DNA from: Ostreococcus lucimarinus
Lineage: Eukaryota
Length of the DNA: 64,000 nt
NCBI GenBank assembly: GCA_000092065.1
Contig: CP000589.1
Strand: one strand, 5' to 3'
Below the pieces are notes generated by a model. The model ran no database searches and was not told the origin of the DNA. It was given only the letters and a program-made list of their open reading frames with translations. Position 1 is the first letter of the stretch, and each line of letters opens with the position of its first letter. The translations under genes were made by a program, and so were the position numbers. Shown here piece by piece: positions 1-28,722 of the stretch.

Positions 1-8
1 CGCGCGGC

Positions 9-1943
9 ATGGCGACGCGCGCGCGAGTCGACGTCCGCGGCGTCGCGCGTCGAATCGTTCGCATCGCATCGCATCGCATCGTCTCGCGTCGCACCGCGCG
101 TTCCGTCGCGTCTTCGCTCGCCGCTCCATCATTCCAAATCGTCTCCGTCTACGTCTCGCTTCGATTCGCGTCGCGCGCGGCGCGTCGTCGCGCGCTTCGA
201 TTCGTCCGCGTCGCCGTCGCGCGCGCGTCGTCGTCCTCGCGCGCGTCGACCGCCTCGCGCGTCTCCATCGCCGCGCGCTGGCTCGGCGTCATCCGCGTCG
301 TTTTGACTCTATTTTTTCTCGCGAGTTTTCCCTCGTTCGCCGCCGTCACGCGTCGTCGTCGCGCGTCGTCCTCGCGCGCGTCGGCTTCCTCGCGTCGGTC
401 GAGCGCCTCGCGCGCGGCGATGTACGCCATCCCGCCCGTGATGACGACGAGCAGCGCCGCGGCGACGCCGAACGCGAGGCCGACGAGCGTCTCGCTCGAC
501 GTCGCGGCGTTCGCGGCGTCGAGCGCGGCGTCGTTCGCGCCGCGGCGCGCGACGTCGCGGATTCGCGCGGACGCGGATTCGCGCGACGCGACGCCGCGCG
601 CTTCGACGGACGCGCGCGCGATCCGCGGCGTCGCGCGACGCGACGCGCGAATCCGCGTCCGCGGACGCCGCGTCGCGACGTCGCGGGACGTCGCGACGGC
701 GACGCGCGCGATGGATGCGCGCGGCATGGCGTCGAGTGACGACGACGCGGTATCCGCGCATCGCGACGCGCGCGCGCGCGACGCGTCGGCGCCGCGCGGC
801 GACGGCGCGATGCCGCGCGCGCGCGCGGACGCGACGCGGGACGCGCGTCGGCGCGCGCGCGACGCGGGACGCGCGACGACGACGCCGACGGCGCGAAATC
901 CGCGACGGCGCGCGCGACGGCGCGCGAGCGCGCCGAAGCGACGCGCGAGCGCCGAGCGCGTCGCGGAGACGGGCGCGAAGAACGCGTACTTCGCGCGCGT
1001 CGACGCGACGGCGCTGGCGGAGGAGGAGGCGCGCGACGACGACGACGCGAAGACGACGCGACGAAGACGCGACGAAGACGACGGGACGGGCGACGCGGCG
1101 ACGCTCCCGCCGGTGTTCGCGGCGGTGACGCGCGCGACGGTGACGGCGATGACGACGGCGAAGGCGCGGCGACGGGCGAGCGATCCCGCGGGCGCGGTGC
1201 GGAGGATCTTTGACGAACGACGCGCGAGACGGGCGGCGGCGACGATTCGGACGACGACGACGACGAACGCGGGACGAAGGACGAGCGAGCCGACGCCGGC
1301 GCGCGCGCGATTCGCACGCGCGTTGGATGGCGCTTTGGACGACGCTTTGGACGACGCGGAGGCGAGCGGAGGGGCGAGCGCGCGGGATGGGGACGACGAC
1401 GCGAGCGACGGGGCGTACGGGTTGTTGCTTCGCGCGGCGCGAGACGAACGCGCGGCGAGAGACGCGTCGTTGCCCGAGGAGTACTCGTTGCAGGAGGTGC
1501 GAGACGGCGGCGCGGCGTGCGAAGATTTGGTCGCGCTGTCCGTCGCGTTCGAGCGCGAGGACGCGCGCGTCGGGTCGCTCGCCGGCGGTTTGGGGGGCGC
1601 GGTGGCGCACGTCTTGCGAACCGCCTCGGGCGAAGCCGTCGGGTACACGTTGACGTACGAAAACCGCGCCCCGGAGTGGGACCGCGCGCGCGCCGTCGTT
1701 CTTCCTCCGCGACTCGCGCACGTGTTCATTCGTCGAGATCACCGCATGCGAGGACTCGGAACGGGTTTGGTGAATTGGTGGCGACGTCGATTCGCGCTGC
1801 GATGCGCTTTTTTCGCCGTCGATTCGCCCAACGACTCGATGACGCGAACGTTGCTTCGCGTCGAATGCGCGCCGGCCACGACGCGTTCGGGTCACGGCGC
1901 GTCTAGTGTACATTACATAGCTCCAGTCGCGGCGTCTTCGTGA
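9..1943 (+). CDS. Uncertain gene; only the C-terminal ~190 aa (about 1380-1943) looks like a folded domain, with a GNAT-like acetyl-CoA motif (R-x-x-G-x-G: RMRGLGTGL, resembling the Eco1/ESCO acetyltransferase core). The N-terminal two thirds is Arg/Ala low complexity in a region where all six frames are open.
   Basis: ORF-track translation; motif AHVFIRRDHRMRGLGTGLVNWW; the 5' 1.3 kb is CGCG-rich with long ORFs on both strands, so the coding status of the N-terminus is unclear. Confidence 0.3.
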   Translation: MATRARVDVRGVARRIVRIASHRIVSRRTARSVASSLAAPSFQIVSVYVSLRFASRAARRRALRFVRVAVARASSSSRASTASRVSIAARWLGVIRVVLTLFFLASFPSFAAVTRRRRASSSRASASSRRSSASRAAMYAIPPVMTTSSAAATPNARPTSVSLDVAAFAASSAASFAPRRATSRIRADADSRDATPRASTDARAIRGVARRDARIRVRGRRVATSRDVATATRAMDARGMASSDDDAVSAHRDARARDASAPRGDGAMPRARADATRDARRRARDAGRATTTPTARNPRRRARRRASAPKRRASAERVAETGAKNAYFARVDATALAEEEARDDDDAKTTRRRRDEDDGTGDAATLPPVFAAVTRATVTAMTTAKARRRASDPAGAVRRIFDERRARRAAATIRTTTTTNAGRRTSEPTPARARFARALDGALDDALDDAEASGGASARDGDDDASDGAYGLLLRAARDERAARDASLPEEYSLQEVRDGGAACEDLVALSVAFEREDARVGSLAGGLGGAVAHVLRTASGEAVGYTLTYENRAPEWDRARAVVLPPRLAHVFIRRDHRMRGLGTGLVNWWRRRFALRCAFFAVDSPNDSMTRTLLRVECAPATTRSGHGASSVHYIAPVAASS

Positions 1944-1984
1944 GCCGAGAGGTTTCACGAGCGCGCGGCGCGCGTTGTAAATTT

Positions 1985-3238
1985 CTATTCCAGCCGGGCG
2001 GGACCTCGGTCCGCCGTCGCGGCGATGTACTTACCAGTCTTTCTGCAGCGGTCGACGTCGTACCCACCGACGAGTTTCGCGCGAATACGATCGGGTAGCT
2101 TGAGCGACGCCTCGACGTCAGCCTTCGTCGCCCCGCGGCCGAGCAAGCGTTCCATGTGCTCGCGGCGCACGCCGTTTTCGAGCACGTCGCGCGTCTCCAC
2201 GCCGCTCTCGTGACTGTCCCATCGAACGCGCTCTTGAAGTTCTTCGTGCATCGCGCGCAAGACGGCCTGCGCCAAGGCGAGCTGACCTTGCGTCTCGGTT
2301 ATCTTGGATTTGAGGTCTTCGGCGTCGCAATCTTCCAAGTCGTCAAAGTACACGCCGCATTCGCGTACGTTGTACGATTCCCCGGTGACTTGGCTCGTGA
2401 GCGTCAAACCTTCGTGCAAGCGATCGATGAGATCGGCATCGACGACGCGACGCGTGAAACAGTCTTCGGGAATGACGCCGCACGATCCAACCTCGAGACC
2501 GCGACGTATTTCTTCTAGATGCGCGATTCGCAAGTGTAGCGCGGCGACGCGACGATCGCGTTCGGCGATCTTTCGCACCAAAGGTTCCGCCTCGCTTTGG
2601 AGCCCTCTGTATCGGCCGAACTCTTCCGCGAACTTCCCCTCCCCGCTCCACGCGAATTCGTACTTGGTCTTTCCCTTCTCGTACCCCTCGTCGCCCTCTT
2701 CTAATTTCCGCGGCGTCCACACCTCGGGATTCTTCCCGACGCTCGCCGCGCGCGTCCCGAGCGACCGCGCGCCTTCGGCCACGACTTCACACATCGCACT
2801 CGCGCACGCTTCCATCGCTGGATGTAACGGGTCGATCGTCAACGCTCCGTCCAACACTTCGCACGTCCCTCGACCGTCGTCATCTCTCGCGTTACCGAAT
2901 CGCAGCTGCACCGCCGCGCCGCGTTCCGCCAACGTCCCGAGCTGTCGCTGCGCCACCTCTCGCGCGTCTACGATCTTCGTCAGCCTCGGTTCGATCGATC
3001 GCGTGAACCTCACGCCGTGAATTTCGATCAAGCACGTATCGCACGCGCGCGACACGCGCCCGTCGCCGTCCTCAACGCGCGTCAAGCGCGTCATGTGCCC
3101 GGTCGTCCCAGTCGTCGTCGCGCGCACGAGTTTCGAGCGTTTCGTGCGGTCGAAGCGGAACGCGATCGTCTTCGCTCGAACGGTGGCGTCGGCGGACGAG
3201 GTAAACATGACGCGCACGTCGTGCGCGACGTCGGTCAT
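1985..3238 (-). CDS. Conserved hypothetical protein (417 aa) with a central coiled-coil/acidic region; family not recognised
   Basis: Clean 417-aa ORF with balanced, non-repetitive composition, sitting between two other genes; no diagnostic motif identified by eye. Confidence 0.45.
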   Translation of the reverse strand: MTDVAHDVRVMFTSSADATVRAKTIAFRFDRTKRSKLVRATTTGTTGHMTRLTRVEDGDGRVSRACDTCLIEIHGVRFTRSIEPRLTKIVDAREVAQRQLGTLAERGAAVQLRFGNARDDDGRGTCEVLDGALTIDPLHPAMEACASAMCEVVAEGARSLGTRAASVGKNPEVWTPRKLEEGDEGYEKGKTKYEFAWSGEGKFAEEFGRYRGLQSEAEPLVRKIAERDRRVAALHLRIAHLEEIRRGLEVGSCGVIPEDCFTRRVVDADLIDRLHEGLTLTSQVTGESYNVRECGVYFDDLEDCDAEDLKSKITETQGQLALAQAVLRAMHEELQERVRWDSHESGVETRDVLENGVRREHMERLLGRGATKADVEASLKLPDRIRAKLVGGYDVDRCRKTGKYIAATADRGPARLE

Positions 3239-3470
3239 CGCGCGATGGCGCGCGCGCGAGTGCGGACGGCGTCAGCGTTCGCGTTTCGTTTTTTTCGAGC
3301 GTTTCTCGAGCGTTTCGACGCGCGACCGCGCGTCTCCGAAATGCGCGAAACACCCCCCCGCGTCTCCGCGTAGTTCGCGTCGCGCCCGACCGCACGCAGA
3401 CGCGCGCGGTGGCGATGCGAGGCGGTACGCGTTACGTTGACTCCGTGCGCACGATCGCGCGTCTCGCGCG

Positions 3471-5447
3471 ATGACGGCGCGCCATGACGCGCGCGCGCGA
3501 GCCGGTCGACGCCGCGTCGTCATCGTCGCGGTGTTGGCGGCCTGGGCGTGGGCGACCGCGGCGAGTGCGGCGCCGTTCGAGAACGCCGCGGCGCTCAAAG
3601 CAGCGGTGAACAATTGCCTCGCGGCGAGTCACACGGGTGATTGCGATTGCTCGAGCGCGTCTGTGGACTGTGGGGCGGCGGGGAGCGACGCGATGTCGCA
3701 GTGGGACACGAGTCTGGTTCCGGACATGAGCTACTTGTTCCACGACGCCCGTTCCTTCAATCAGTCCATCGGGAACTGGAATACGAGTCAAGTAACGAAC
3801 ATGGTTGGGATGTTCTTGTACGCCGCTGCTTTCAATCAGCCCATCGGGAACTGGGACACGAGTCAAGTGACTAACATGACTGACATGTTTGCGATCGCCC
3901 GTTCCTTTAACCAACCCATTGGTGACTGGAACACGAGCCAAGTCATGGACATGCGTTTTATGTTCGCTACTGCTTATGCTTTCGATAGTCCTATCCGCAA
4001 CTGGGACATCAGCCAAGTGACGAACACGAGTTACATGTTCTATTCTATTGCTGCATCTTTCAATGTTTTCAACCAATCCGTCGAGAACTGGAACACGAGC
4101 CAAGTTATGGACATGCGTGGGATGTTCGGGAACGCACGTTACTTCAACAAGCCTATCGGCGGCTGGAACACGAGCCAGGTTACGGACATGCGTAACATGT
4201 TCGTTACCGCCTCTTCCTTCAACCAGCCCATCGGTGACTGGGACACGAGCCAGGTTACGGACATGCGTTACATGTTCGCTACCGCCTCTTCCTTCAACCA
4301 GCCCATCGGTGACTGGGACACGAGCCAGGTTACAGACATGCGTGGAATGTTGGGGTCTGTGTCCTTCAATCAGCCCATCGGGAACTGGAACACGAGCCAG
4401 GTTACAGACATGCGTACGATGTTCGCTACCGCCTCTTCCTTCAACGCGCCTATCGGTGACTGGAACACGAGCCAAGTTACAGACATGGGTAGAATGTTTT
4501 ACGCAGCCTCTTCTTTTAACCGGTCTATTGGCGACTGGAACACGAGCCAAGTCACGGACATGCAGTCGATGTTTTACGCCTCTTCATTCGATCAACCCAT
4601 CGGGAACTGGGACACAAGCCTAGTCACATACATGAATTCGATGTTCAACAGCGCAGTTTCCTTCAACCAGTCTATCGGTGGCTGGAACACGAGCCGAGTG
4701 GTGAGCATGCAGTCGATGTTCGCGAACGCATTTTCCTTCAACCAGCCCATCGGGAACTGGAACACGGGCCGAGTGGTGAGCATGCATTCCATGTTTGACA
4801 GCGCAGTTTATTTCAACCAGCCCATCGGGAACTGGAACACGGGCCGAGTGGTGAGCATGAATTCCATGTTTGACAGCGCAGGCTTTTTCAACCAGCCCAT
4901 CGGGAACTGGGACACGAGCCAGGTTACAGACATGAATTCCATGTTTGATAGCGCAGGCTCTTTCAACCAGCCCATCGGGAACTGGAACACGAGCCAGGTT
5001 ACAGACATGAATTCCATGTTTGATAGCGCAGGCTCTTTCAACCAGCCCATCGGTGACTGGGACACGAGCCAGGTTACAGACATGCATTGGATGTTCCAGG
5101 GTGCCTCTTCCTTCAACCAGCCTATTGGAGACTGGGATACGAGCCAAGTGGTGACCTCGTACTCATTTAGCGAAATGTTCAAGGACGCAACGGCGTGGCT
5201 ATGCTCACACACACACAATACGTCGGATCCGATGCATTTTCAAAGATACTACGATGGTCCACCGTCTTTTTGGTTCGAGTCAGCGGCTGGAATCGGTGCA
5301 GTGTGCTTGTCTCCACCACCGCCAACCACACTACCGTGTGTATATGTCGCCGCCCCTCCGTTGACCGCAAGGTCGACTGGAACCGCGAGGTCGAGTGTCG
5401 CACTCTCGCTATATACGACAGTCATTATCATATACTTCCACGCCTGA
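3471..5447 (+). CDS. Secreted/surface protein made of 19 tandem DUF285-type 'bacterial surface protein 26-residue repeats' (consensus [24 protein letters not shown]). It has an N-terminal signal peptide and a hydrophobic C-terminal tail (possible membrane or GPI anchor).
   Basis: Translation shows the repeated FNQPIG[ND]W[ND]TSQVT[DN]M..MF unit typical of Mycoplasma/Listeria DUF285 (TIGR02167-like) repeats; signal-like [20 protein letters not shown]; C-terminal [11 protein letters not shown]. Confidence 0.8.
3745..5160 (+). repeat. Intragenic tandem array, about 19 units of 72-75 bp, many near-identical at the nucleotide level
   Basis: Units such as ttcaaccagcccatcgggaactgg(g/a)acacgagccaggttacagacatg recur with few substitutions; this also creates long spurious antisense ORFs. 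Confidence 0.85.
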
Positions 5448-5642
5448 AACTGAGACAGAAACTGAGACATCGCACATTCACAAATCCTACAAGGATATGA
5501 TACCGTAGTCATAGTGGATATATACAGTGCTGCTCTCGCATTTCCAGTTCCTACCTGATGAATACTGGATTATGGGGTGATTTTCAAACAAGTGTAGAGT
5601 ACTAGCCTCCATTTCTCGCTTGTTCTTGAAATACAACTTGAA

Positions 5643-7808
5643 TTACAACTCGAGGCAAACTGAGGGCGTCGAGACATAATCGCCATCACCTGTCGCAGCG
5701 CGCGCGAAAATCTCTATCACGACGTCGGCGGCGGTGGCGGGCGTGAGTCCGCACGCCACGACGGGAACGACGATGATAGAAACGTCGTACACGCGCCGAA
5801 TCGCCGACGCGAGAGTCTCACTGAGCGCCGAATCGACGCTTAAATTATGATACAGTCGGCATGTGGACACATGCGACGCGGTCAGCTCGGCTTCGCCTAA
5901 ATACAGTGCGATTCGTGCCAAGATGTGCCCGTTGGTGAGCTCATCACTTTTCAAGACGGCTTGTTTGACGCTGATTGAACACTGGAGGAATCGCCCTGGG
6001 CGGCGAACGCTCGTCGATTCCATCACGTCGCAAGCCGAGTCGCCTCGCACAGACTCGCGCACGAGCGTTTCCTCGCCATCGAACGATTCTTCGTCGCCGA
6101 GAGGTCCTGTGCCGACGAGCAACGTGGGAGCGATCTCACCGATGGCGTTCTTTGGAAGATCGGTGACGGTGAGGTACGTCGTCGTCGGGCGCCATAGAAA
6201 TCTTCGTCCACTCTGCGCGACGACGCGTTCGAAGGACGCCGACATCACGTTCGCTGGATGCACGCCCTCTGCTTCGTAGTCTGCGTTGTACTTCGCACTA
6301 GTGTAGAACGTCACCGCCAGCGCTCGTTCACCAAGTGGCGCACCCGTGATGTCTGCGACAGCGACGGCGCTCGCCATCGCGCGGTCGAGTTGGGCAACTA
6401 TTCCGGGCACCAAGTCTAACGTTGTCGGCTCCATACCGATTTGCCCGGCCACGTACGCCAGGCCGTTCACACGAATCGACTGACCGTACGGCCCGATGCA
6501 CGCGGGAGCCCACGACGACAGTGACTGCACGTGTAGTGATTTTCGTTCGTTACCGCCGTCGAGGATGAACAAGCAATCAATCTGAACCTTGGCGTCGCCG
6601 GGCAAGCACGTGGCGACGCACGCGCGGGCGCTGGGCGCGACGGGCGGCATGTATCTAGAATACACGCCATTAACCGTTGCGAACTGGCTCATATCATCTA
6701 GATAAACGTGCGTCATGGCGACATTACGCCACGCCTCAGTCGCCCCGTCCTCGCCGAGTTTTTCGGCGACGAGAGCGCGCATCGTCTGAAAAATAGCCTC
6801 CGCACACGTTTCGTGCGTCTCGCTCGCTGGATCTGCGGCGCGCAAAGACACCGAAAGTATCGAACCCACTAAGCCTATCGTGTGATGCACACGGCAGGTC
6901 GTACCTGTGACTGCAACGCAACCTTCGGTTTCGGCCGTGAACTCCAACGTCGCGGACGCCGTCGCCGACGCTCTCACGCGAGGCGCGTCGTCTTCGACCC
7001 AAATCACCCTCCCGGGCGCGATTTCATCCCCCTTCTCTTTGAGCACGACGTCAAACGCGTCGATGACCAAGTGACCGCTCGGCGCGAATCGATCTTCGCT
7101 CGTCTTCACCGTCCTCGTCTCCGTAATCGCCAAACTCGCGCGAGCGAACATCGGACAATCCACCACGAGCGTCTCAAACTCCCCGCCTTCGCCCGCGCAG
7201 TGCGACCCGTACTCATCTTCAACCCTAATCAGCGTCTCCCTCGCGTCCGCGATGGACATCCCCAAGTGTTTCCCCGGATCCAATCCCATCGCCGCCACCT
7301 TGACCAGACGCGCGTCGACGCCCTCCGCCTCCACCCGCCGTAAAACCTCTCGCTGTTCCACGCGCCACAGCGGCGCCAACGACGTCAGCCCCAGGCTCGC
7401 GCACACCGCTTCCACCCGCAACCGCTGATAATCGCTCAGTATCGCCCCCGAGCACACGCTATTCACATCCGGTCGCTCGCGTTTCGCCGCCGCCAACGCC
7501 GCGCGCAAATCCTCCACCTCGTCCCCCTCCTCTCCGTCCCCGTACTCCAGCCCCAGCGCCTTCGACCGCCCCGTGATCCGTCGGCGGTACACGTCCAACC
7601 CCGCGCACGCCGCGAACGCCCCCACGCACTCGTGCGCGACCGTCTGAAAGCAGTGCGAGTCCACCTCGCGCGTCGCCGCGTCCCTCGGGCACAGGTTGAC
7701 GAGGCACGCCACCGTCGCGTCCGCGCGCCTCGACGTCTCGATCGCCGCCAAAACGCCGTCCTTGCCGCCGGACACGAGCGCCGCGCACGCGTACCGCCGC
7801 TCGGGCAT
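5643..7808 (-). CDS. DPH6: Diphthine--ammonia ligase (diphthamide synthetase): N-terminal PP-loop ATPase (Alpha_ANH_like_IV) plus two C-terminal YjgF/RidA domains
   Basis: MPERRYACAALVSGGKDGV PP-loop start as in yeast Dph6; C-terminal GPYGQSIRVNGLAYVAGQIG RidA motif; start set at the internal Met (7808) because the upstream 27 codons are Arg-rich. Confidence 0.8.
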   Translation of the reverse strand: MPERRYACAALVSGGKDGVLAAIETSRRADATVACLVNLCPRDAATREVDSHCFQTVAHECVGAFAACAGLDVYRRRITGRSKALGLEYGDGEEGDEVEDLRAALAAAKRERPDVNSVCSGAILSDYQRLRVEAVCASLGLTSLAPLWRVEQREVLRRVEAEGVDARLVKVAAMGLDPGKHLGMSIADARETLIRVEDEYGSHCAGEGGEFETLVVDCPMFARASLAITETRTVKTSEDRFAPSGHLVIDAFDVVLKEKGDEIAPGRVIWVEDDAPRVRASATASATLEFTAETEGCVAVTGTTCRVHHTIGLVGSILSVSLRAADPASETHETCAEAIFQTMRALVAEKLGEDGATEAWRNVAMTHVYLDDMSQFATVNGVYSRYMPPVAPSARACVATCLPGDAKVQIDCLFILDGGNERKSLHVQSLSSWAPACIGPYGQSIRVNGLAYVAGQIGMEPTTLDLVPGIVAQLDRAMASAVAVADITGAPLGERALAVTFYTSAKYNADYEAEGVHPANVMSASFERVVAQSGRRFLWRPTTTYLTVTDLPKNAIGEIAPTLLVGTGPLGDEESFDGEETLVRESVRGDSACDVMESTSVRRPGRFLQCSISVKQAVLKSDELTNGHILARIALYLGEAELTASHVSTCRLYHNLSVDSALSETLASAIRRVYDVSIIVVPVVACGLTPATAADVVIEIFARAATGDGDYVSTPSVCLEL

Positions 7809-7948
7809 CGCGACTCGCGACGCCGCGCGTCGACGCCGAGTGGCGTCGACGCCGCGCGACGTCGACGCCGCCTTATCCGCGCCGCACACGTCGACGCCGC
7901 GCGCGAGCGACGCGAACGCAGAGCGCGCGTGCGACGCGCGCGCTTCCG

Positions 7949-10024
7949 ATGGCGATGACGACCGCGCGAGGGGCGACGGCGACGCGCGCGCGCGCGAGGG
8001 CGACGACGATCGGCGGAAAGAAGAGGGATGGCGAGACGACGCGCGCGCGAGGACGCGCGCGGACGCGCGCGCGCGCGGACGCGCGCGAGGCGCGCGAAAA
8101 AACGATGGGACGACGCGCGGCGATCGGCGTCGCGGCGATCGCGCTGCACGGAGGAAAACGGAACGCGGCGCGGGCGGAGGAGGAGGCGGCGGCGACGGGG
8201 ACGGCGACGGCGACGCCGCGGGGGACGGCGAACGCGCTGGACGCGTACGAGATGGCGACCAGGAGCGGTGGGAACTCGAACACGGCGAAAGCGATCGTGA
8301 ATAAGGGCGAGAAGAAGAGCAAGGTGAAGATTGAGGCGAAGGAGGCGTCGAGCGGGCCGCCGGGGGCGCTGCTCGGAGCGATTCCCGTCGTGCTCGGTCT
8401 CGGCGGATTCGCCGCGTTCAAATCGTTGAGCGGCGGGTCGTCGGCGGATGACGACGATGACGACGAGCCGATTCGTGCGCCGCCGAAGAAGCCGTCGTTG
8501 CCGAAATTTGAGGCGCCGAAGGTTGTGCCGCCGAAGTTTGACGCGCCCGAGATTGACGCGCCCAAATTTGAAGTTCCCAAGTTTGAGATGCCGAAGATTC
8601 CGGGCGTCGGCGGCAGTGGTTTGCCACCGGATGCGCCTCGCGCGGGCTTCCCATCGCGCGCGGATTCTTTCGCTGAGGAGGAGGAAGAACAAGAGGAAGA
8701 AGAGGAAGCCGTCGAAGACGAAGACAGAGAGGCGCGCAAAGCGCGCCGCGCAGCTGAACGAGCCGAGCGCGAAGCCGAGCGCGCCGCGCGGGATGCTGAG
8801 CGTGAAGCAGCTAAGGCGCAACGCGCCGCTGAGCGTGAAGCCGTCGAAGACGAAGACAGAGAGGCGCGCAAAGCGCGCCGCGCAGCTGAACGAGCCGAGC
8901 GCGAAGCCGAGCGCGCCGCGCGGGATGCTGAGCGTGAAGCAGCTGAGGCGCAACGCGCCGCTGAGCGTGAAGCCGCAGAAGCTGAACGAGCTCAGGCGAA
9001 GGAAGCCAAGGCGCGGGAGGCGGAACGCATCGAGCGCGATCGCAGCGCCGAAGAGAGAGACGCGGCTGAACGTAAGAAACGCGAAAAGCAGCTCATCGAA
9101 CAGGAGCGCGAGCGTATCAAGGCCGAAAAGCGAGTCCGTGCGGAACAACAGCGCGCGGCCCGCGATGCGGAAAAGGCTGAGCGCCAAGCGGAAAGGGATG
9201 CGCGCGAAGCGGAGCGACAGGCTGAAAAGGAAGCTCGAGCCGCCGAGCGAGCGGATCGCAAGGCCGCAAACGCTCTCCTCAAGTCCAAGCCAAAGTCAGC
9301 GCCGGAACCCAAGGAAGCCAAGGAAGAGAAATCGTTCACGCAACTCTTTGCGAAAAAGAACGTCGAAGACAGCGAACCACCGGCCAAAACGCAAGTCATG
9401 AAAAAGGCGAAGCCCGAGCCGATTGCGCGAACTCAAGTCATGTCCAAGAGTGGGAAATCGTCTGGCGTGGCCGAATTGCCATCCAAATTCCCGAGCGTTG
9501 AGGATTTGGAAGGTTTAAGCAAGGAAGAAAAGCTTGCGATCGCCGATGAGGCCGACGCCTTCGCCGAACGCTTGGTTCGTAAGGCTGAAGCTGCGGAGAA
9601 ATTCGCCAACGGTCCGGTCGTCGGCGTCCTCTTCTTCTTGAAGTCTGGCGCCATCAAGTCCGCTGAGCGTGCCGCCGAGGTCGCAGAGCTCGCCGAAGCG
9701 ACCGCCGCGCAAGTTCGATCGGCGGCGGAGCGCGGCGATGGCATCTCTGGCGCCGTTATCGGCGCCATCGCCGCGACCGTTCTCGTCGGCGGTGGCGCCG
9801 CGTTGTTGGGCGGCTCGTTGTTGGGCGGCGATAACGCACCCTCCTCCGGACCCAAGGCTGTGGCCATCAAGAAAGCTGCGGCTCCCAAGGCATCGGCACC
9901 TATGTTCGCCGCGCCGCCTCAAGAGGCGCCCAAGCTTCGCGATTTGGAAGCTCTCGAAGCCATCGAGAAACTGAACAACGGCGAAGGCGACGCGTTGGAC
10001 CTGTACGAACAGATGCGCCGCTAA
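7949..10024 (+). CDS. Hypothetical highly charged (Glu/Arg/Ala) coiled-coil protein with two hydrophobic segments; contains an exact 132-bp tandem duplication
   Basis: ORF translation: AEREAERAARDAEREAAKAQRAAEREA blocks; hydrophobic LLGAIPVVLGLGGFAAF and GAVIGAIAATVLVGGGAALLGG; start uncertain (several in-frame Met). Confidence 0.5.
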   Translation: MAMTTARGATATRARARATTIGGKKRDGETTRARGRARTRARADAREAREKTMGRRAAIGVAAIALHGGKRNAARAEEEAAATGTATATPRGTANALDAYEMATRSGGNSNTAKAIVNKGEKKSKVKIEAKEASSGPPGALLGAIPVVLGLGGFAAFKSLSGGSSADDDDDDEPIRAPPKKPSLPKFEAPKVVPPKFDAPEIDAPKFEVPKFEMPKIPGVGGSGLPPDAPRAGFPSRADSFAEEEEEQEEEEEAVEDEDREARKARRAAERAEREAERAARDAEREAAKAQRAAEREAVEDEDREARKARRAAERAEREAERAARDAEREAAEAQRAAEREAAEAERAQAKEAKAREAERIERDRSAEERDAAERKKREKQLIEQERERIKAEKRVRAEQQRAARDAEKAERQAERDAREAERQAEKEARAAERADRKAANALLKSKPKSAPEPKEAKEEKSFTQLFAKKNVEDSEPPAKTQVMKKAKPEPIARTQVMSKSGKSSGVAELPSKFPSVEDLEGLSKEEKLAIADEADAFAERLVRKAEAAEKFANGPVVGVLFFLKSGAIKSAERAAEVAELAEATAAQVRSAAERGDGISGAVIGAIAATVLVGGGAALLGGSLLGGDNAPSSGPKAVAIKKAAAPKASAPMFAAPPQEAPKLRDLEALEAIEKLNNGEGDALDLYEQMRR
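8708..8971 (+). repeat. 2 x 132-bp near-perfect tandem duplication inside the CDS (encodes AVEDEDREARKARRAAERAEREAERAARDAEREAA[K/E]AQRAAERE twice)
   Basis: Direct comparison of 8708-8839 with 8840-8971. Confidence 0.85.
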
Positions 10025-17251: not shown

Positions 17252-19579
17252 ATGATGAAGACGATCGAGACGACGAAGACGCATCGGCGATCGGCGCGCG
17301 GCGTCGAACGACGGCGCGGGACGACGACGCGCGCGGAAGGACGCGCGGGACGACGACGGCGCGACGATGCGTCGAACGAACGTCGTCGTCGCGGGCTCGG
17401 GGCGATGCGCGCGCGGGACGAAGGACGGAGGGACGAAGCGCGCGGGGACCGGGACGGCGAGCGGCTTCGGGAGAGCGGCGCGGTCGCGTTGGCGATCGCG
17501 TTCGGGTTGGGATTCGCGAGCCCGAGCGCGAGGGCGGTGTGGCCGTTTCGGACGGTGCGAGCGACGACGTCGGAGGTGTCGGAGAGCGAACATCGGTCGG
17601 TGGTGGAGATGTTCGCCGAGGCGTTCGAGGAAGCCGAAGCGGCGGTCGAAGCCGAAGTCGTCGAAGTCGTCGAAGACGTCGTCGCGAAGCGAGACGGCGC
17701 GGCGGTCGGGGCGGTTCTGGTTCCGGCCGCGTGCGTCGTCGCCGTCGCGGCGCTCGCGTGCGTGACGTATGCACAGCGGTACGCGTTAATGTTGTGGGCG
17801 ACGAAGGCGTTGGATCAGTGGGAGGCGAACGATCCAAACTTTCCGAGCAAGCAGCTGCGATGGCAACAACTCTTGGACGAGGAGGTGAGCAAGAGGGAGG
17901 CTTTGAACGAGGAATGGCTCGAGCGATTACAGGCGGAAAAGGCGAAAACCAAAGCGAACGCGGATGAGATGCAACAGCGCATCGAAGAAGAACGCGCGCT
18001 CGCGCTGGACATGCGCGCGAACGCGACGGCTCTGGAAACCGAGTTCAGAGCGCTCATCGACGAACAACGCGCCGCCTCTGGGGCGCGCGAAGAAGAGTTA
18101 CACGGACGCATCGTCGAGGAACAGGCCAAGTTCGCGAGTCTTTCCGCGGAGGCTGGATCTCTCCGCGAGCAAATCAGTTCGCTCGAGGCGCAGTTGACGA
18201 GGAAGTCGGATTCATCAAACGACTTGAAAGAAGAGCTACTCTCGGCGCGACGGGCTGAAGAAGTCGTCAAATCCGAACTCGCCGGCGTGTGTGCGGCGAA
18301 GGATGCGCTCGCGCGACAGCTCGACGAAGTGCGTACGAATCTCACGTGGGAAACTTCGAAGGCGAGCGAGCTCGAGGAACAGCTCAGCGCGCTCAAGTCT
18401 GAGCTCGCCAGCGCTCGCGACGCGAGGGCCGAACTTGAGCGAGAGCTCGAAGGCGCCCGCGCTAACCTCGCCGTTGAGTCGTCGAACGAGCACGAGCTCG
18501 AAGAACAGCTCAGTGCGCTCAAGTCTGAGCTCGCCAGCGCTCGCGACGCGAGGGTCGAACTTGAGCGAGAGCTCGAAGGCGCCCGCGCTAACCTCGCCGT
18601 TGAGTCGTCGAACGAGCACGAGCTCGAAGAACAGCTCAGTGCGCTCAAGTCTGAGCTCGCCAGCGCTCGCGACGCGAGGGTCGAACTTGAGCGAGAGCTC
18701 GACGCCATGCGCGACGGATTTGAAGCACAACTCGAGGCGCAGAAAGGCGCTGGCGCCGATATGAAACTCGAATCAGAGCGTCTCGAGGAACTGGTCGCGA
18801 AATTGAAGAACGAAATCGAGGCGAACAGTGTGCTTCGCGAGCGAATGCAAACCGAAAAGCAAGCGGAAGACTCCTACGTGACGGCCCTCAACGAGGAGAT
18901 TGAGGCTTTGCGCTTGGAGTTGCACGCGGCGCAAGCGCACGCGGCGCAAGCGCTCGGGCAGTACGCTGAACTTGATTCTGCGCTACCAAAGATCATCGAC
19001 GCAGTCGACCGCTTGCGCAGTCTTACGAGCATGGTAAACGAAGATAGCCCGATCGTAGAGCACACGTTCAGCGTCGCCGACGTACCACCACCGCAGCCGA
19101 ACGAGTTCCTCGTCATCGTCGGTTCATGGAATGACTGGGATCTCGCCACGGGCGTCGCGATGTCGTACGACCCCGATGGCAGCTGGAAAGCGCTTGTTGA
19201 GCTTCAGTCTGACATCGTGTACGAGTATAAGGTTTGTGTTTGTTCGGGGTCCGATGAAGAGCGCGTGCCCCAGGCCTGGCAATCCGGCGCAAACTCGGCG
19301 TTTGCGATCGCCTCCTCGTTGATCAACGAACAAGGTTTAGCGCCTAAGGCGACGGTGATGAGTCACTGGGTCGCAGATCCTGCGAACGCGCCAATTATGA
19401 TGTTCGGTCCCGACGGCGAAAAGTTCACGTTGAGCTCCACTCAACTCATGACCGATCTTCCTGCTAACTTAATCACGGACACGCTCGAGGATCTGTCGCA
19501 CGTCATCTCCGAGGTGACGAGGGGAATCGACAACGACATCCTCAATACCAAGCAGCACGCGGCGACGGCTTCGCGTTAA
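17252..19579 (+). CDS. PTST-like protein (PROTEIN TARGETING TO STARCH family): N-terminal hydrophobic segment, long coiled coil, C-terminal CBM48/AMPK-beta-type carbohydrate-binding module
   Basis: C-terminal EFLVIVGSWNDWDLATGVAMSYDPDGSWKALVELQSDIVYEYKV matches the CBM48 core; start uncertain (the first ~300 codons of the ORF are antisense to the OMT gene). Confidence 0.6.
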   Translation: MMKTIETTKTHRRSARGVERRRGTTTRAEGRAGRRRRDDASNERRRRGLGAMRARDEGRRDEARGDRDGERLRESGAVALAIAFGLGFASPSARAVWPFRTVRATTSEVSESEHRSVVEMFAEAFEEAEAAVEAEVVEVVEDVVAKRDGAAVGAVLVPAACVVAVAALACVTYAQRYALMLWATKALDQWEANDPNFPSKQLRWQQLLDEEVSKREALNEEWLERLQAEKAKTKANADEMQQRIEEERALALDMRANATALETEFRALIDEQRAASGAREEELHGRIVEEQAKFASLSAEAGSLREQISSLEAQLTRKSDSSNDLKEELLSARRAEEVVKSELAGVCAAKDALARQLDEVRTNLTWETSKASELEEQLSALKSELASARDARAELERELEGARANLAVESSNEHELEEQLSALKSELASARDARVELERELEGARANLAVESSNEHELEEQLSALKSELASARDARVELERELDAMRDGFEAQLEAQKGAGADMKLESERLEELVAKLKNEIEANSVLRERMQTEKQAEDSYVTALNEEIEALRLELHAAQAHAAQALGQYAELDSALPKIIDAVDRLRSLTSMVNEDSPIVEHTFSVADVPPPQPNEFLVIVGSWNDWDLATGVAMSYDPDGSWKALVELQSDIVYEYKVCVCSGSDEERVPQAWQSGANSAFAIASSLINEQGLAPKATVMSHWVADPANAPIMMFGPDGEKFTLSSTQLMTDLPANLITDTLEDLSHVISEVTRGIDNDILNTKQHAATASR
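18368..18700 (+). repeat. About 2.6 tandem copies of a 126-bp unit encoding ELEEQLSALKSELASARDAR[A/V]ELERELEGARANLAVESSNEH inside the coiled coil
   Basis: Unit starts at 18368, 18494 and 18620. Confidence 0.85.
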
Positions 19580-25827: not shown

Positions 25828-28722
25828 ATGGCGCCACACGACGACCGGGACGTGGAGCGCGCGGAGACGGCGGCGCTGCTCGGGGACGACGGCGACGCGC
25901 GCGGTGACGGGCGAGGACGCGCGCGGGGGGGGACGACGCGCGGGACGACGCGGACGGCGATGGTGGTGGGCGGCGCGTGCGCGCTCGCGGCGTGCGCGTC
26001 GATCGGGGTGTGGACGCACCGGAGCGAGACGCTGCAGGAGGCGTGGCGACCGGTGCCGGGGGAGGAGTTAGCGATGCGAGCGAGGGGAGCGCGCGCGGGC
26101 GGGGCGTCGATCGCGCGGTGGGGGACGACGTCGACGGAGAGGGCGCGGTTGGGGGCGGATGCGGCGACGGGGGTGACGCCGACGCCGACGCAGATGACGG
26201 CGCTCAGAGGGTTGCGGTTACAGATTCGTAACGCGATGTTCAATCCGGGAACGGTCACGTCGCAGACGCTGAGCACGATGACGAACCAGTTTTTCAACAT
26301 CGTGCCGCAGGCGCGCGCGCTGTTCCCGACGGGCGCGCCGGCGAATATCGACGACTTGGACGCGACGATCAAATCTTTGATGGCGAACGGAGCGATGGCG
26401 GCACCGGCCGCACCGGCGGCGGAGAGTGAGTTTAGAGACATGCTCGCATCCAGTCACCCGACCGGGGTCTCGATGCCCATCGATGTTTCCACAGAGCCCA
26501 CGGCGCAGCAACAGCTACGTCCGCGCAAGCCGTTGACGTCGTACGAGTCTGCGCTGTACGAAACCAGGCAAGCGGCGTCGCAGGTTAGCGAGCGTAGCGA
26601 CGTCGCGTCCACGGGATCGCCTCACCACCATTCGCACCGGGTATCGAGCGAAACGCAGACGGTGATCGAGAACGACAACTTGGAACGCATGATTAATTCG
26701 CTGGACGCCTCGGGAGCCGAGGAAGTCGACAAAGTCGAACCGTATCGAGCGCCTTCGGGCGACTTCATTGAATACTCGAATGGCGATTCCACGAGGCATC
26801 ATAGACGACATCGTCATTCGTCGAACGGCGAAGAAGTTGAAGCCCCGCAGGACGCCGTCTCGACGGGTCCCGCTTTGCCGCCTTGGGCGGCGCAGCCGAC
26901 CGCCGCCGCACAAGTGCAGCAACCGATCCAACAGTGGACTGGTACTGGCTCAGTGGTTCAGAGCGGGCAAGCGATGCCGTTGGCGACGCCAGTGCCGGTG
27001 ACGACGACGGCGCCCGCGCAACAAGAGGACGCATCGTGGACGGATTTCCAGAATCTGATGTCGGCGGCGCCGACGCCGGATGCGCCGACGCCGACACCCG
27101 TTCCGACGCCGACACCCGTTCCGACGCCGACACCCGTTCCGACGCCGACACCCGTTCCGACGCCGACACCCGTTCCGACGCCGACACCCGTTCCGACGCC
27201 GACACCCGTTCCGACGCCGACACCGATGCCGGCGGATGAGCCTTCGGACATCAAGGACCTGCTCGATTTTGGCGCGCCGACGACGTCTCCGCAAGTCGAA
27301 GTGACAGCGAGCGCGACTCCTACCCCGACTCCGAGTGCTTCGGACGACGAAAGTGATATTGTAGATTTATTCACGAACGGTGGCGGCGAAGAAAAAGATA
27401 CTGGAGGATTGGGTGAGGACGTAGCGAGCGCGACGGACGATTCGACTGCGCCGGCATCCATGTTGAGACGGCCCGTCTTCCCGACCGCCGACGCGGAAGC
27501 GATTGCTTCGCACATCGTGGACATGATCATGCATCGTAAATCGAGCGATCAAGGCGAAGACGATGCCGCAGATATCGGGTTAGATCAGAGCGGCAGTGCT
27601 GAGAAAAAGTCGCAAGATGCGCCCAACCTTTCCAAGGAGGAAATCGCGGCAATGTTGGCGTCAAGCTTGACGGCGGTGACGACGGAGGCTGTGCAGGCGA
27701 ACGCTTTGGAGAACGCGCGCGTGTCTGACGCATCGAACGGTAGTGCCAACGCAAAAATAATGGCCGACGCATTAGTGGCGCACGATAAAATGATGGCAAA
27801 GCGCATAGCTGAAATTCTGACGAGCGAGAACGCAGAGGACAAGCTTGCCAATCCGAATGCCGCCGCCAGCATCGGCTCGGCGACGGGGTACGACGTTTCG
27901 GGTCGCTCGGGCGAAGCGGCGCAGTTGATCATGTACGAGGAACAGCGTCACCAGCGTGAGGAAGTTGAAGCCATGCGGCGAGATTTAGCGGCTCTGATGG
28001 CCAACATTCAGGCCAACTACGCCATGGGCGCGACGGAGGATCGAATTGATAAAACAGCTTCGGCGGCGGCGAGTCACATCATCGACACCCTTCGACCGGT
28101 GATCAAAACAGACGTCGCTCGCGAGGGTTCGTCCGAGTCGTCAACTCTGTTCGATTATCCAGTCATGCCGAGCTCGTCACTGAGTAGTGAAACTTTGCGT
28201 TTGGATTCGATCGACGACGATAGTTACGACGACGTCGGCTCGGCCGAGGCCAAGGCCAAGGCCAAGGCGACTTCCAAGGATGACGATGGCGCCGCTTCAG
28301 GAGACTGGTTAGCCCTCTTGGAAGAAGACGCCGGGGGTGCGTCAGCCGCTGCCACTCCATCGGCACCGGCGCCGGCGCCGGCTAAAAAGTCATCTGACGG
28401 CGTCGACGCGTCGTCTTCGAATTCCGAAGAAGACGTCTCCGTTCCCGGCGACAACGGCGCGACGGGCGATCAACCCGCTTGGCTCGCGCACGCGCTCACC
28501 GACGAGCAGCTCACCGCACAGTTCCTCGCAGACGAAGTCGAGGACGACGGCGAGGCGACGCGCAAGCGTTCCCGCAAGCACAGGGCGTCGAGATTGGGCG
28601 CGTCTCAACGCTTCACCGCGCCGACGCCCGTCGTCCGGGACGAACCGACGCGCGAAACCAAACAGGGCGCGTACGTTCGCGCCCTGAACGAGCGCGCCGC
28701 TCGCGCCCTGCGCCACGATTAG
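25828..28722 (+). CDS. Hypothetical low-complexity Pro/Thr/Ala/Ser-rich protein with one N-terminal hydrophobic segment and a (TPVPTP)n array
   Basis: 964-aa ORF; MVVGGACALAACASIGVW; PTPTPVPTPTPV x7; family not identified. Confidence 0.4.
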   Translation: MAPHDDRDVERAETAALLGDDGDARGDGRGRARGGTTRGTTRTAMVVGGACALAACASIGVWTHRSETLQEAWRPVPGEELAMRARGARAGGASIARWGTTSTERARLGADAATGVTPTPTQMTALRGLRLQIRNAMFNPGTVTSQTLSTMTNQFFNIVPQARALFPTGAPANIDDLDATIKSLMANGAMAAPAAPAAESEFRDMLASSHPTGVSMPIDVSTEPTAQQQLRPRKPLTSYESALYETRQAASQVSERSDVASTGSPHHHSHRVSSETQTVIENDNLERMINSLDASGAEEVDKVEPYRAPSGDFIEYSNGDSTRHHRRHRHSSNGEEVEAPQDAVSTGPALPPWAAQPTAAAQVQQPIQQWTGTGSVVQSGQAMPLATPVPVTTTAPAQQEDASWTDFQNLMSAAPTPDAPTPTPVPTPTPVPTPTPVPTPTPVPTPTPVPTPTPVPTPTPVPTPTPMPADEPSDIKDLLDFGAPTTSPQVEVTASATPTPTPSASDDESDIVDLFTNGGGEEKDTGGLGEDVASATDDSTAPASMLRRPVFPTADAEAIASHIVDMIMHRKSSDQGEDDAADIGLDQSGSAEKKSQDAPNLSKEEIAAMLASSLTAVTTEAVQANALENARVSDASNGSANAKIMADALVAHDKMMAKRIAEILTSENAEDKLANPNAAASIGSATGYDVSGRSGEAAQLIMYEEQRHQREEVEAMRRDLAALMANIQANYAMGATEDRIDKTASAAASHIIDTLRPVIKTDVAREGSSESSTLFDYPVMPSSSLSSETLRLDSIDDDSYDDVGSAEAKAKAKATSKDDDGAASGDWLALLEEDAGGASAAATPSAPAPAPAKKSSDGVDASSSNSEEDVSVPGDNGATGDQPAWLAHALTDEQLTAQFLADEVEDDGEATRKRSRKHRASRLGASQRFTAPTPVVRDEPTRETKQGAYVRALNERAARALRHD
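27085..27228 (+). repeat. 18-bp unit gacgccgacacccgttcc x7-8, perfect tandem array
   Basis: Direct reading 27085-27228; produces mirrored ORF artefacts on the minus strand. Confidence 0.9.

Follow-up and report, generated by a model that had tools for sequence, protein, structure and literature searches.

The window analysed here is a 64,000-nucleotide stretch of Ostreococcus lucimarinus DNA (GenBank assembly GCA_000092065.1, contig CP000589.1). At exactly 3471-5447 on its plus strand it carries an uninterrupted open reading frame (ORF) of 658 codons plus stop. The product matches the Pfam family PF03382 (DUF285) with 641.7 bits (E=1.4e-196, cut-off 25) and the TIGR02167 model "PARCEL repeat-containing surface protein" with 256 bits (cut-off 30) along 11 stretches of the protein. 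Both scores are far above the cut-offs, and this profile check bears out the initial annotation, which had named the gene a DUF285 26-residue repeat protein. It is the only DUF285 gene in the window. The locus is probably an accessory gene of O. lucimarinus for a secreted, C-terminally anchored surface protein with a 20-unit solenoid of leucine-rich repeat (LRR) type, carried on an inserted segment of 2.38 kb.

Tandem Repeats Finder detects a 75-bp period across 3702-5149, with a score of up to 933, far above chance. When units are anchored on the W[DN][TI][SG] core, 20 are counted in 3678-5183 on the plus strand, one more than the 19 first reported. Seventeen have the modal length of 25 residues (75 bp), two have 24 and one has 29, with units 1 and 20 degenerate. 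The consensus unit of 25 residues contains the repeat motif FNQxIxxWxTSxVTxMxxMF, and the repeat consensus is as originally written. Across units 2-19, F2, W9, V14 and M20 are invariant and I6, M17 and F21 nearly so. Register positions 18, 19, 22, 23 and 25 have an entropy of 2.4-2.7 bits. The description of the units as nearly identical holds for a small part of the array. In a common 66-nt register the DNA identity between units averages 71% over all pairs and 76% between neighbours, and near-identical units are limited to the pairs 15/16 (95%) and 17/18 (97%). The three frames originally given as an example (4861-4935, 4936-5010 and 5011-5085) are indeed alike, with 72/75, 71/75 and 70/75 identical positions (93-96%). 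With about 70% identity between most units, only a few adjacent pairs offer a substrate for slippage.

Two ORFs on the minus strand also run through the array (3432-4550, 372 aa, and 4620-5147, 175 aa) and show a repeated RVPVxDGLxE pattern. These are a by-product of periodic codons without stops in that frame, and have no support as independent genes.

On the plus strand, the array is bounded by non-repeat parts at both ends of the protein. A signal peptide is predicted from hydropathy and inspection at residues 1-33 (3471-3569), with a basic n-region, a hydrophobic core and the ending ...ASA before AP. The top hydropathy of the whole protein is at residues 19-24, within a peak that covers residues 16-33 after the basic stretch. 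In the structural model described below this region is a short helix with a predicted local distance difference test score (pLDDT) under 50, and it is conserved in the homolog on metagenome contig L013 (see below). The signal peptide is followed by a cysteine-containing N-terminal cap (3570-3677), with a motif common to the metagenome proteins P0153-P0159 and a model helix at residues 39-52. After the array comes a C-terminal cap (5184-5309; ...GAVCLS), which is conserved in the L013 homolog and partly in P0159, and has model helices at 566-569 and 574-581. It leads into a proline-rich linker (5310-5396) with pLDDT under 50, variable in L013, in which the small residues STGTARSS before the tail are a possible attachment region for glycosylphosphatidylinositol (GPI). 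The protein ends in a hydrophobic tail of 16 residues (5397-5444), a candidate GPI signal or membrane anchor and the second hydropathy peak. The eukaryotic signal peptide and hydrophobic C-terminal tail of the initial annotation are thus recovered as the two top hydropathy segments. The tail is kept as VALSLYLAVTIIYFHA in the 72%-identical L013 gene, and the linker before it is not kept.

By inspection and hydropathy, the protein has the layout expected with a GPI signal: a signal peptide, a small-residue attachment region, a short spacer and a terminal hydrophobic tail. No cytoplasmic residues follow the tail, and 16 residues are too few for a comfortable transmembrane helix. The core GPI glycosyltransferases PIG-A, -M, -V and -B have been reported in Ostreococcus (PMC3797821). 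From these sequence features, GPI anchoring is favoured over a type I anchor. The protein contains 16 N-x-S/T sequons, mainly within the WNTS core.

An AlphaFold2 model of the protein was built with a 43-sequence alignment. Its mean pLDDT is 81, with values above 90 throughout the repeats, and the signal peptide, linker and tail are disordered. Each unit forms one short strand and there are no helices in residues 75-560, helical elements being found in both caps. The structural neighbours of the model are ligand-binding LRR ectodomains. Foldseek also gives matches of LRR kind, with template modelling scores (TM-scores) of only 0.13-0.19; such low global scores imply that the curvature differs from that of solved LRR domains. 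The model thus supports an LRR-type beta-solenoid for the repeat array, one that superposes on solved LRR domains. A sequence search of the PDB gave no matching chain, and a Pfam scan at E<=0.01 returned PF03382 only, with neither a Pfam LRR nor the canonical LxxLxLxxN/C motif. Among the structural matches, the giant-virus protein CroV588 (PDB 6nyr_A, "circular LRR") has by far the highest sequence identity, 22% over 482 aligned residues, which may make it the nearest relative of the DUF285 repeat with a solved structure.

The gene is not present in all members of the population. To compare alleles, contigs were gathered by a look-up of those encoding the neighbour proteins and by a scan of Joint Genome Institute (JGI) metagenomes with the 417-aa protein of the left neighbour. 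In eight near-identical wild contigs (L002, L006, L007, L008, L009, L010, L024 and part of L005) the alignment to the window ends at 3315 and restarts at 5700, with flanks 98-99% identical. The missing segment, 3316-5699, is 2,384 bp long and makes up a complete gene unit, consisting of the DUF285 gene with 155 bp upstream and 252 bp downstream. In its place the empty-site contigs hold a common 37-bp filler, TTATTCATTTGCTAATCTACGTATGTCTATCGTCGCG, of which the L024 copy has a 2-bp deletion. The gene is present in the wild contigs L005 (99.7% identical up to 4828), L012, L014/P0151 and P0152, and a Logan contig (L001) is 100% identical to the window over 5056-8734.

Contig L005 carries both states. 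Its positions 1-4960 hold the filled allele (window 858-4828, 99.7%) joined to a second copy of 2520-3315 (97.5%), which is followed by the empty junction and the end of the right neighbour, DPH6. The join has no obvious overlap, and the contig would be a rearranged allele or else a chimera formed from two haplotypes that occur together; both alleles seem to be present in one sample. In the 50 bp left of the breakpoint (3265-3315), filled and empty haplotypes differ by several clustered differences and a 3-bp indel, against 98-99% identity in the outer flanks. This divergence may be an insertion scar or linked haplotype divergence.

The left neighbour of the segment (1985-3238, minus strand) encodes a 417-aa protein which, by exact look-up, is identical to O. 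lucimarinus CCE9901 XP_001419820.1. The right neighbour (5643-7808, minus strand) encodes a DPH6-like diphthine-ammonia ligase of 721 aa, identified by Pfam Diphthami_syn_2 domains and cluster names. The right breakpoint lies inside this gene, whose last 18 codons and stop (5643-5699, minus strand) are supplied by the end of the inserted segment, in antisense orientation. As a result, the C-terminus of the DPH6-like protein is ...EIFARAATGDGDYVSTPSVCLEL here and ...EIFARRDDRHT in empty-site strains. The protein has 721 aa in the window (...ARAATGDGDYVSTPSVCLEL) and 709 aa at the empty site (...ARRDDRHT). In L024, where the 2-bp deletion sits in the 37-bp junction, it has 710 aa and ends with ...ARRDETYVD.

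The reference protein set seems to model this neighbourhood poorly, as the 721-aa DPH6-like ORF has in its cluster XP_001419822.1, a 215-aa "predicted protein, partial". For the DUF285 gene itself, an exact look-up of the 658-aa product in a collection of 15 billion proteins found no entry, and an O. lucimarinus reference protein was not among the matches of a search with the non-repeat termini. The reference gene model for the DUF285 gene probably differs from the ORF described here or is partial.

Nine proteins, each from a marine metagenome, were retrieved in the search with the non-repeat parts of both termini. One of them, P0153, leads to contig L013, which has a homolog of the whole gene at 4849-7197 with about 72% DNA identity. 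The homology extends from window position 3361, some 110 bp before the ATG, as far as the stop codon. The two proteins share the signal peptide, the cysteine N-cap and the C-cap (WLCSHTxNTSxPxHFQ...DGPPSxW), differ in the proline-rich linker, and have a near-identical tail (SVALSLYxxVxIIYFHA). An exhaustive HMMER search with the C-terminal 99 aa among 1.84 billion representatives found only the protein's own cluster and three weak partial matches, at least one of which is on the proline-rich stretch; the tail has no wider family within that set.

The neighbour of the L013 gene encodes splicing factor 1 and is only 62% identical to the O. lucimarinus cluster containing XP_001420719.1, which is on a different chromosome. 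L013 thus comes from another Ostreococcus-like species, in which the DUF285 gene is at an unrelated locus. Four contigs of that species (L028-L031) lack the gene at that position, and the O. lucimarinus-like splicing-factor-1 locus has no DUF285 neighbour. The L013 gene lies at a rearrangement junction of sequences that are about 6 kb apart in L028-L031, and a frameshift divides it into parts of 176 and 571 aa. As L013 is a long-read contig of 4x coverage, the frameshift and the odd junction are possibly due to sequencing error or mis-assembly. The pattern, a capped and promoter-bearing Ostreococcus DUF285 gene found at differing places in different lineages, agrees with the "intragenomic mobilisation" described by Roske et al. 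(2010).

Presence and absence are in themselves without direction, since filled and empty sites are both found in the wild, apparently even in a single sample (L005). The gene could be ancestral at this site, with the empty strains having lost it by a 2.38-kb deletion repaired with a 37-bp filler. However, in the outgroup contig L011, in which both neighbours have 47-49% amino acid identity to those here, the DPH6 ortholog directly adjoins a 419-aa ortholog of the 417-aa gene, with a 177-bp spacer. The eight empty alleles moreover share a single junction, and this junction provides the stop codon of DPH6. In the other Ostreococcus-like species the homolog occupies an unrelated locus, whose counterpart in an O. 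lucimarinus-like contig is free of DUF285 genes. Loss of an ancestral gene is thus unlikely. Insertion is the more parsimonious event, given the one shared empty junction, its supply of the DPH6 stop codon and the arrangement in L011, and the segment is most likely a derived insertion in part of the O. lucimarinus population. In Table 2 of Roske et al. (PMC2996958), one PARCEL ORF is listed for O. lucimarinus chromosome 9 and none for O. tauri chromosome 9; the window is suspected to be on chromosome 9.

The ends of the segment, CGACGCGC... and ...GTCGCAGC, have no terminal inverted or direct repeats and no target-site duplication; the target lost 37 bp rather than being duplicated. Among the ORFs of the segment, only the DUF285 gene has support from a family or from homologs. 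A transposon or self-mobilising cassette was considered as the carrier and was rejected, given the absence of target duplication, terminal repeats and other supported ORFs. Capture of the segment by break repair or by ectopic recombination would fit its ends.

The composition of the segment is native-like. The GC content at third codon positions (GC3) of the DUF285 gene is 0.70 (0.72 in the repeats), compared with 0.74-0.76 in the flanking genes and 0.69-0.86 in 21 other long ORFs of the window. Overall GC is 52-54%, compared with about 63% in the neighbours, a difference that follows from an amino acid composition rich in N, F, M, S, T and D. Low GC as a sign of foreign origin is ruled out by this composition together with a GC3 inside the window range. 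The 5' non-coding region that travels with the gene (3316-3470, plus strand), a putative promoter and 5' untranslated region, has a GC of 0.73, like other 5' intergenic regions in the window. The AT-rich 3' non-coding region (5448-5699, plus strand) has a GC of 0.43, like the tail-to-tail intergenic regions of the window (0.39-0.42).

The initial annotation had raised the gene as a candidate for horizontal transfer from bacteria. Such a transfer, with a gene of Mycoplasma, Listeria or Bacteroidota type captured recently and given eukaryotic targeting signals, would account for several observations: the family is overwhelmingly bacterial in databases, the highest-scoring homologs are bacterial or archaeal "BspA family LRR surface proteins", close relatives lack the inserted gene, and its GC is lower than that of its neighbours. 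However, the low GC is explained by amino acid composition, the GC3 comparison proposed as a check places the gene within the range of the window, and the unit has GC-rich 5' and AT-rich 3' regions in Ostreococcus style. The caps, signal peptide and tail are common to the Ostreococcus-like homolog and to other fragments of marine eukaryote type, whereas the bacterial and archaeal matches (35-63% identity) cover the repeats only, without caps or tail. The C-terminal module is also essentially without relatives in the HMMER search. Recent transfer from a bacterium is therefore very unlikely. What stands of the original surface-protein reading, as far as sequence goes, is a variable repeat protein with secretory-type termini; a recent bacterial origin is not supported.

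Giant viruses are another conceivable source, either a prasinovirus or another member of the Nucleocytoviricota; for Aureococcus and its virus, an exchange of DUF285 genes has been proposed. Giant-virus contigs encode DUF285 arrays with 51-54% identity, and host-virus flux of DUF285 has been reported in pelagophytes (10.1101/2024.10.30.620910, PMC10720644). However, the viral proteins come from AT-rich sequence (N/K-rich), have neither of the two caps nor the tail, and resemble the protein here solely in the repeat consensus, whereas the inserted unit has host composition. Acquisition from a giant virus is thus extremely improbable. The donor was most probably another Ostreococcus locus, and not a bacterium or a virus.

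Among the gene-bearing strains, the array itself varies. The L012 allele has an exact in-frame deletion of one 75-bp unit relative to the window (4205-4279, plus strand), leaving an intact ORF of 636 aa with 19 units. Its other differences from the window are an insertion of 77 bases at 3323, with the direct repeat GCGCGTCTCCGAA on either side, a further insertion of 9 bp near 5161, and substitutions clustered at 4413-4449 and 5076-5079. In the patch at 4413-4449 the end of unit 10 becomes the sequence of unit 13, which looks like an exchange between units. Over collinear codons, the window and L012 have 21 non-synonymous and 3 synonymous differences, and about half of the codon changes are at the high-entropy positions 18, 19, 22, 23 and 25. 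The non-coding flanks have about four differing positions besides the 77-bp insertion. The L014/P0151 allele has one unit fewer among units 15-18, plus further substitutions. All unit indels seen are in frame. The length variation between strains that had been anticipated is thus found, in short-read assemblies, and is joined by absence of the whole gene. In its repeat-number differences between closely related genomes the gene resembles a contingency locus; in the strict sense of frequent, reversible switching, that label would be conjectural.

The allele pattern, with a null allele, one-unit indels, unit exchange and an excess of amino acid changes, is as expected for a surface molecule under diversifying or frequency-dependent selection. 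Relaxed constraint together with repeat-driven mutation would also produce the same pattern, at least in part.

Several points weigh against the reading of the locus as an inserted, native-looking gene for a variable anchored surface protein. The GC3 of the gene is about 2 standard deviations (SD) under the expectation from host codon usage (observed minus expected -0.072, SD 0.037), mainly owing to the tail (GC3 0.53), a mildly anomalous value. The search made via the neighbour of the L013 homolog did not reveal the immediate donor copy. The polarity of the event, insertion rather than deletion, is drawn from one outgroup contig and parsimony. The differences in unit number come from short-read metagenome assemblies, which can collapse repeats, and the L012 deletion is bounded by an exact 54-bp duplicate and so may be an assembly collapse. 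Repeat-bearing alleles break assemblies, and the counts of empty and filled contigs are biased accordingly. Finally, the signal peptide and the GPI or transmembrane anchor are predictions from hydropathy and inspection, with a tail that is short for a transmembrane helix.

Near-perfect tandem repeats also occur in three further long ORFs of the window, at 8705-8975 (132 bp x 2.1, 99%), 18367-18702 (126 bp x 2.7, 98%) and 27085-27224 (18 bp x 7.8, 100%). Being much less varied than the DUF285 units, these repeats are more promising candidates for recent expansion or length polymorphism.

Genes of this kind have been described in Ostreococcus before. The DUF285/PARCEL genes of O. lucimarinus were published in 2010 (Roske et al. 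2010, BMC Genomics 11:430; PMC2996958), where PARCEL ORFs of O. lucimarinus and O. tauri are tabulated per chromosome and those of Micromonas are also in the set. That paper reports that paired chromosomes differ in PARCEL content, and argues for horizontal and intragenomic mobility. Relative to it, the exact breakpoints, the presence and absence in the population and the unit-number alleles are, as far as is known, new details. As with the PARCELs described there, the gene here has a 25-residue tandem unit, variable units, putative membrane-targeting termini and a distribution that differs between sister genomes. Its tandem canonical units combine conserved hydrophobic with variable hydrophilic positions, in keeping with the PARCEL definition given in the same source. 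However, PARCELs were predicted in that source as amphipathic helices, whereas the repeats here are modelled as an LRR-type beta-solenoid without helices. The dyad symmetry from which PARCELs take their name is also not enriched in the array, in which 4 exact hairpins (6-bp stem, 3-14 nt loop) were counted. Shuffling of synonymous codons gave 7.7 +/- 2.9 and shuffling of codon order 4.9 +/- 2.9; exact palindromes were scored here, whereas imperfect consensus palindromes are used in the published description.

Mycoplasma LppQ/LppC, the Mbov_0838 family (NF045896) and Listeria-type repeat proteins (TIGR02167) resemble the O. lucimarinus gene in the profile hidden Markov model of the repeat, in surface location (predicted here) and in variation between close strains. 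However, they are bacterial lipoproteins with a lipobox, whereas the protein here has a predicted eukaryote-type signal peptide, cysteine caps and a hydrophobic C-terminal tail. Accordingly, the whole-protein model NF045896 gives 355.1 bits, under its cut-off of 500, and there is no N-terminal lipobox. LRR ectodomains were also compared, namely those of the plant receptor kinases GSO1 and BRL2, internalins, Bacteroides BspA-like proteins (4fs7, 4fdw) and CroV588 (6nyr). The O. lucimarinus protein differs from these in having FNQxIxxWxTSxVTxMxxMF rather than LxxLxLxxN, and it has no kinase or signalling domain. Fusions of a kinase with DUF285 (P0026, P0064 and P0109), which ranked with the best hits, were considered as an analogy to receptor kinases, and rejected as K/N-rich proteins with an N-terminal kinase, no signal peptide and an unrelated lineage.

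Closer in setting are the DUF285 genes of pelagophytes (Aureococcus / Kratosvirus quantuckense) and diatoms, which are likewise arrays in eukaryotic phytoplankton with strain-specific presence. The Aureococcus genes are in a low-GC block of viral origin, whereas the composition of the gene here is that of the host, and none of its viral relatives shares the caps. In diatoms, pelagophytes and giant viruses, DUF285 has been described as an enigmatic, LRR-related solenoid that is strain-specific or in host-virus flux (10.1101/2024.10.30.620910, PMC10720644, 10.1101/2024.06.08.598090). It ranks with the most strongly transcribed protein families of unknown function in marine phytoplankton, and is still called "enigmatic" (10.1101/2024.06.08.598090).

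From the features above, a course of events can be proposed for the locus. The gene, with about 155 bp upstream and about 250 bp of 3' region, would have been inserted between two housekeeping-type genes in part of the population, replacing 37 bp of the target and rewriting the last codons of DPH6. After insertion, the array would have changed by gain and loss of whole units and by patchy exchange between units, with changes that mostly alter amino acids at variable positions. The product would enter the secretory pathway, be N-glycosylated and remain attached to the outside of the plasma membrane, in a cell without wall or scales. There, an LRR-type solenoid ectodomain of about 500 residues, closed by cysteine-containing N- and C-caps, would present the variable positions as a binding surface.

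The function, as suggested by the modelled fold, would likely be surface recognition or adhesion, towards for example viruses, bacteria, grazers or mating partners. The solenoid could instead be an ice-binding, antifreeze-like surface, or have a structural rather than a recognition role, an idea that has been put forward speculatively for DUF285 proteins of diatoms. The solenoid fold is supported, and diatom DUF285 transcripts are enriched at high latitude, with a likeness to antifreeze solenoids having been noted (10.1101/2024.06.08.598090). However, no feature of the locus speaks for ice binding, the structural neighbours of the model are ligand-binding LRR ectodomains, and allele differences at variable surface positions suit recognition better than they do a regular ice-binding face. 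An ice-binding or structural role is thus highly improbable.

For the family, these results show that recent transfer cannot be deduced solely from a "bacterial-looking" domain in a eukaryote. The predicted LRR-type solenoid would also correct the older helical model of the repeat. For O. lucimarinus, the locus offers a natural experiment, in an alga that can be cultured and has a tiny genome, as near-identical wild genomes exist with or without a complete, native-looking gene for a DUF285 surface protein. The breakpoints can be assayed by polymerase chain reaction (PCR), and carrier and empty strains can be compared for virus adsorption, bacterial attachment and mating. A more specific idea, tentative and rather doubtful at present, is that the gene is a polymorphic determinant of self/non-self recognition or of host range in this naked picoalga, with its presence, repeat number and exposed residues differing between co-occurring strains under selection by viruses (through prasinovirus adsorption), grazers, bacteria or mating partners. 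If this were true, the gene would be a counterpart in eukaryotic phytoplankton of variable surface antigens, located on an ordinary chromosome and not on the known hypervariable "outlier" chromosomes.

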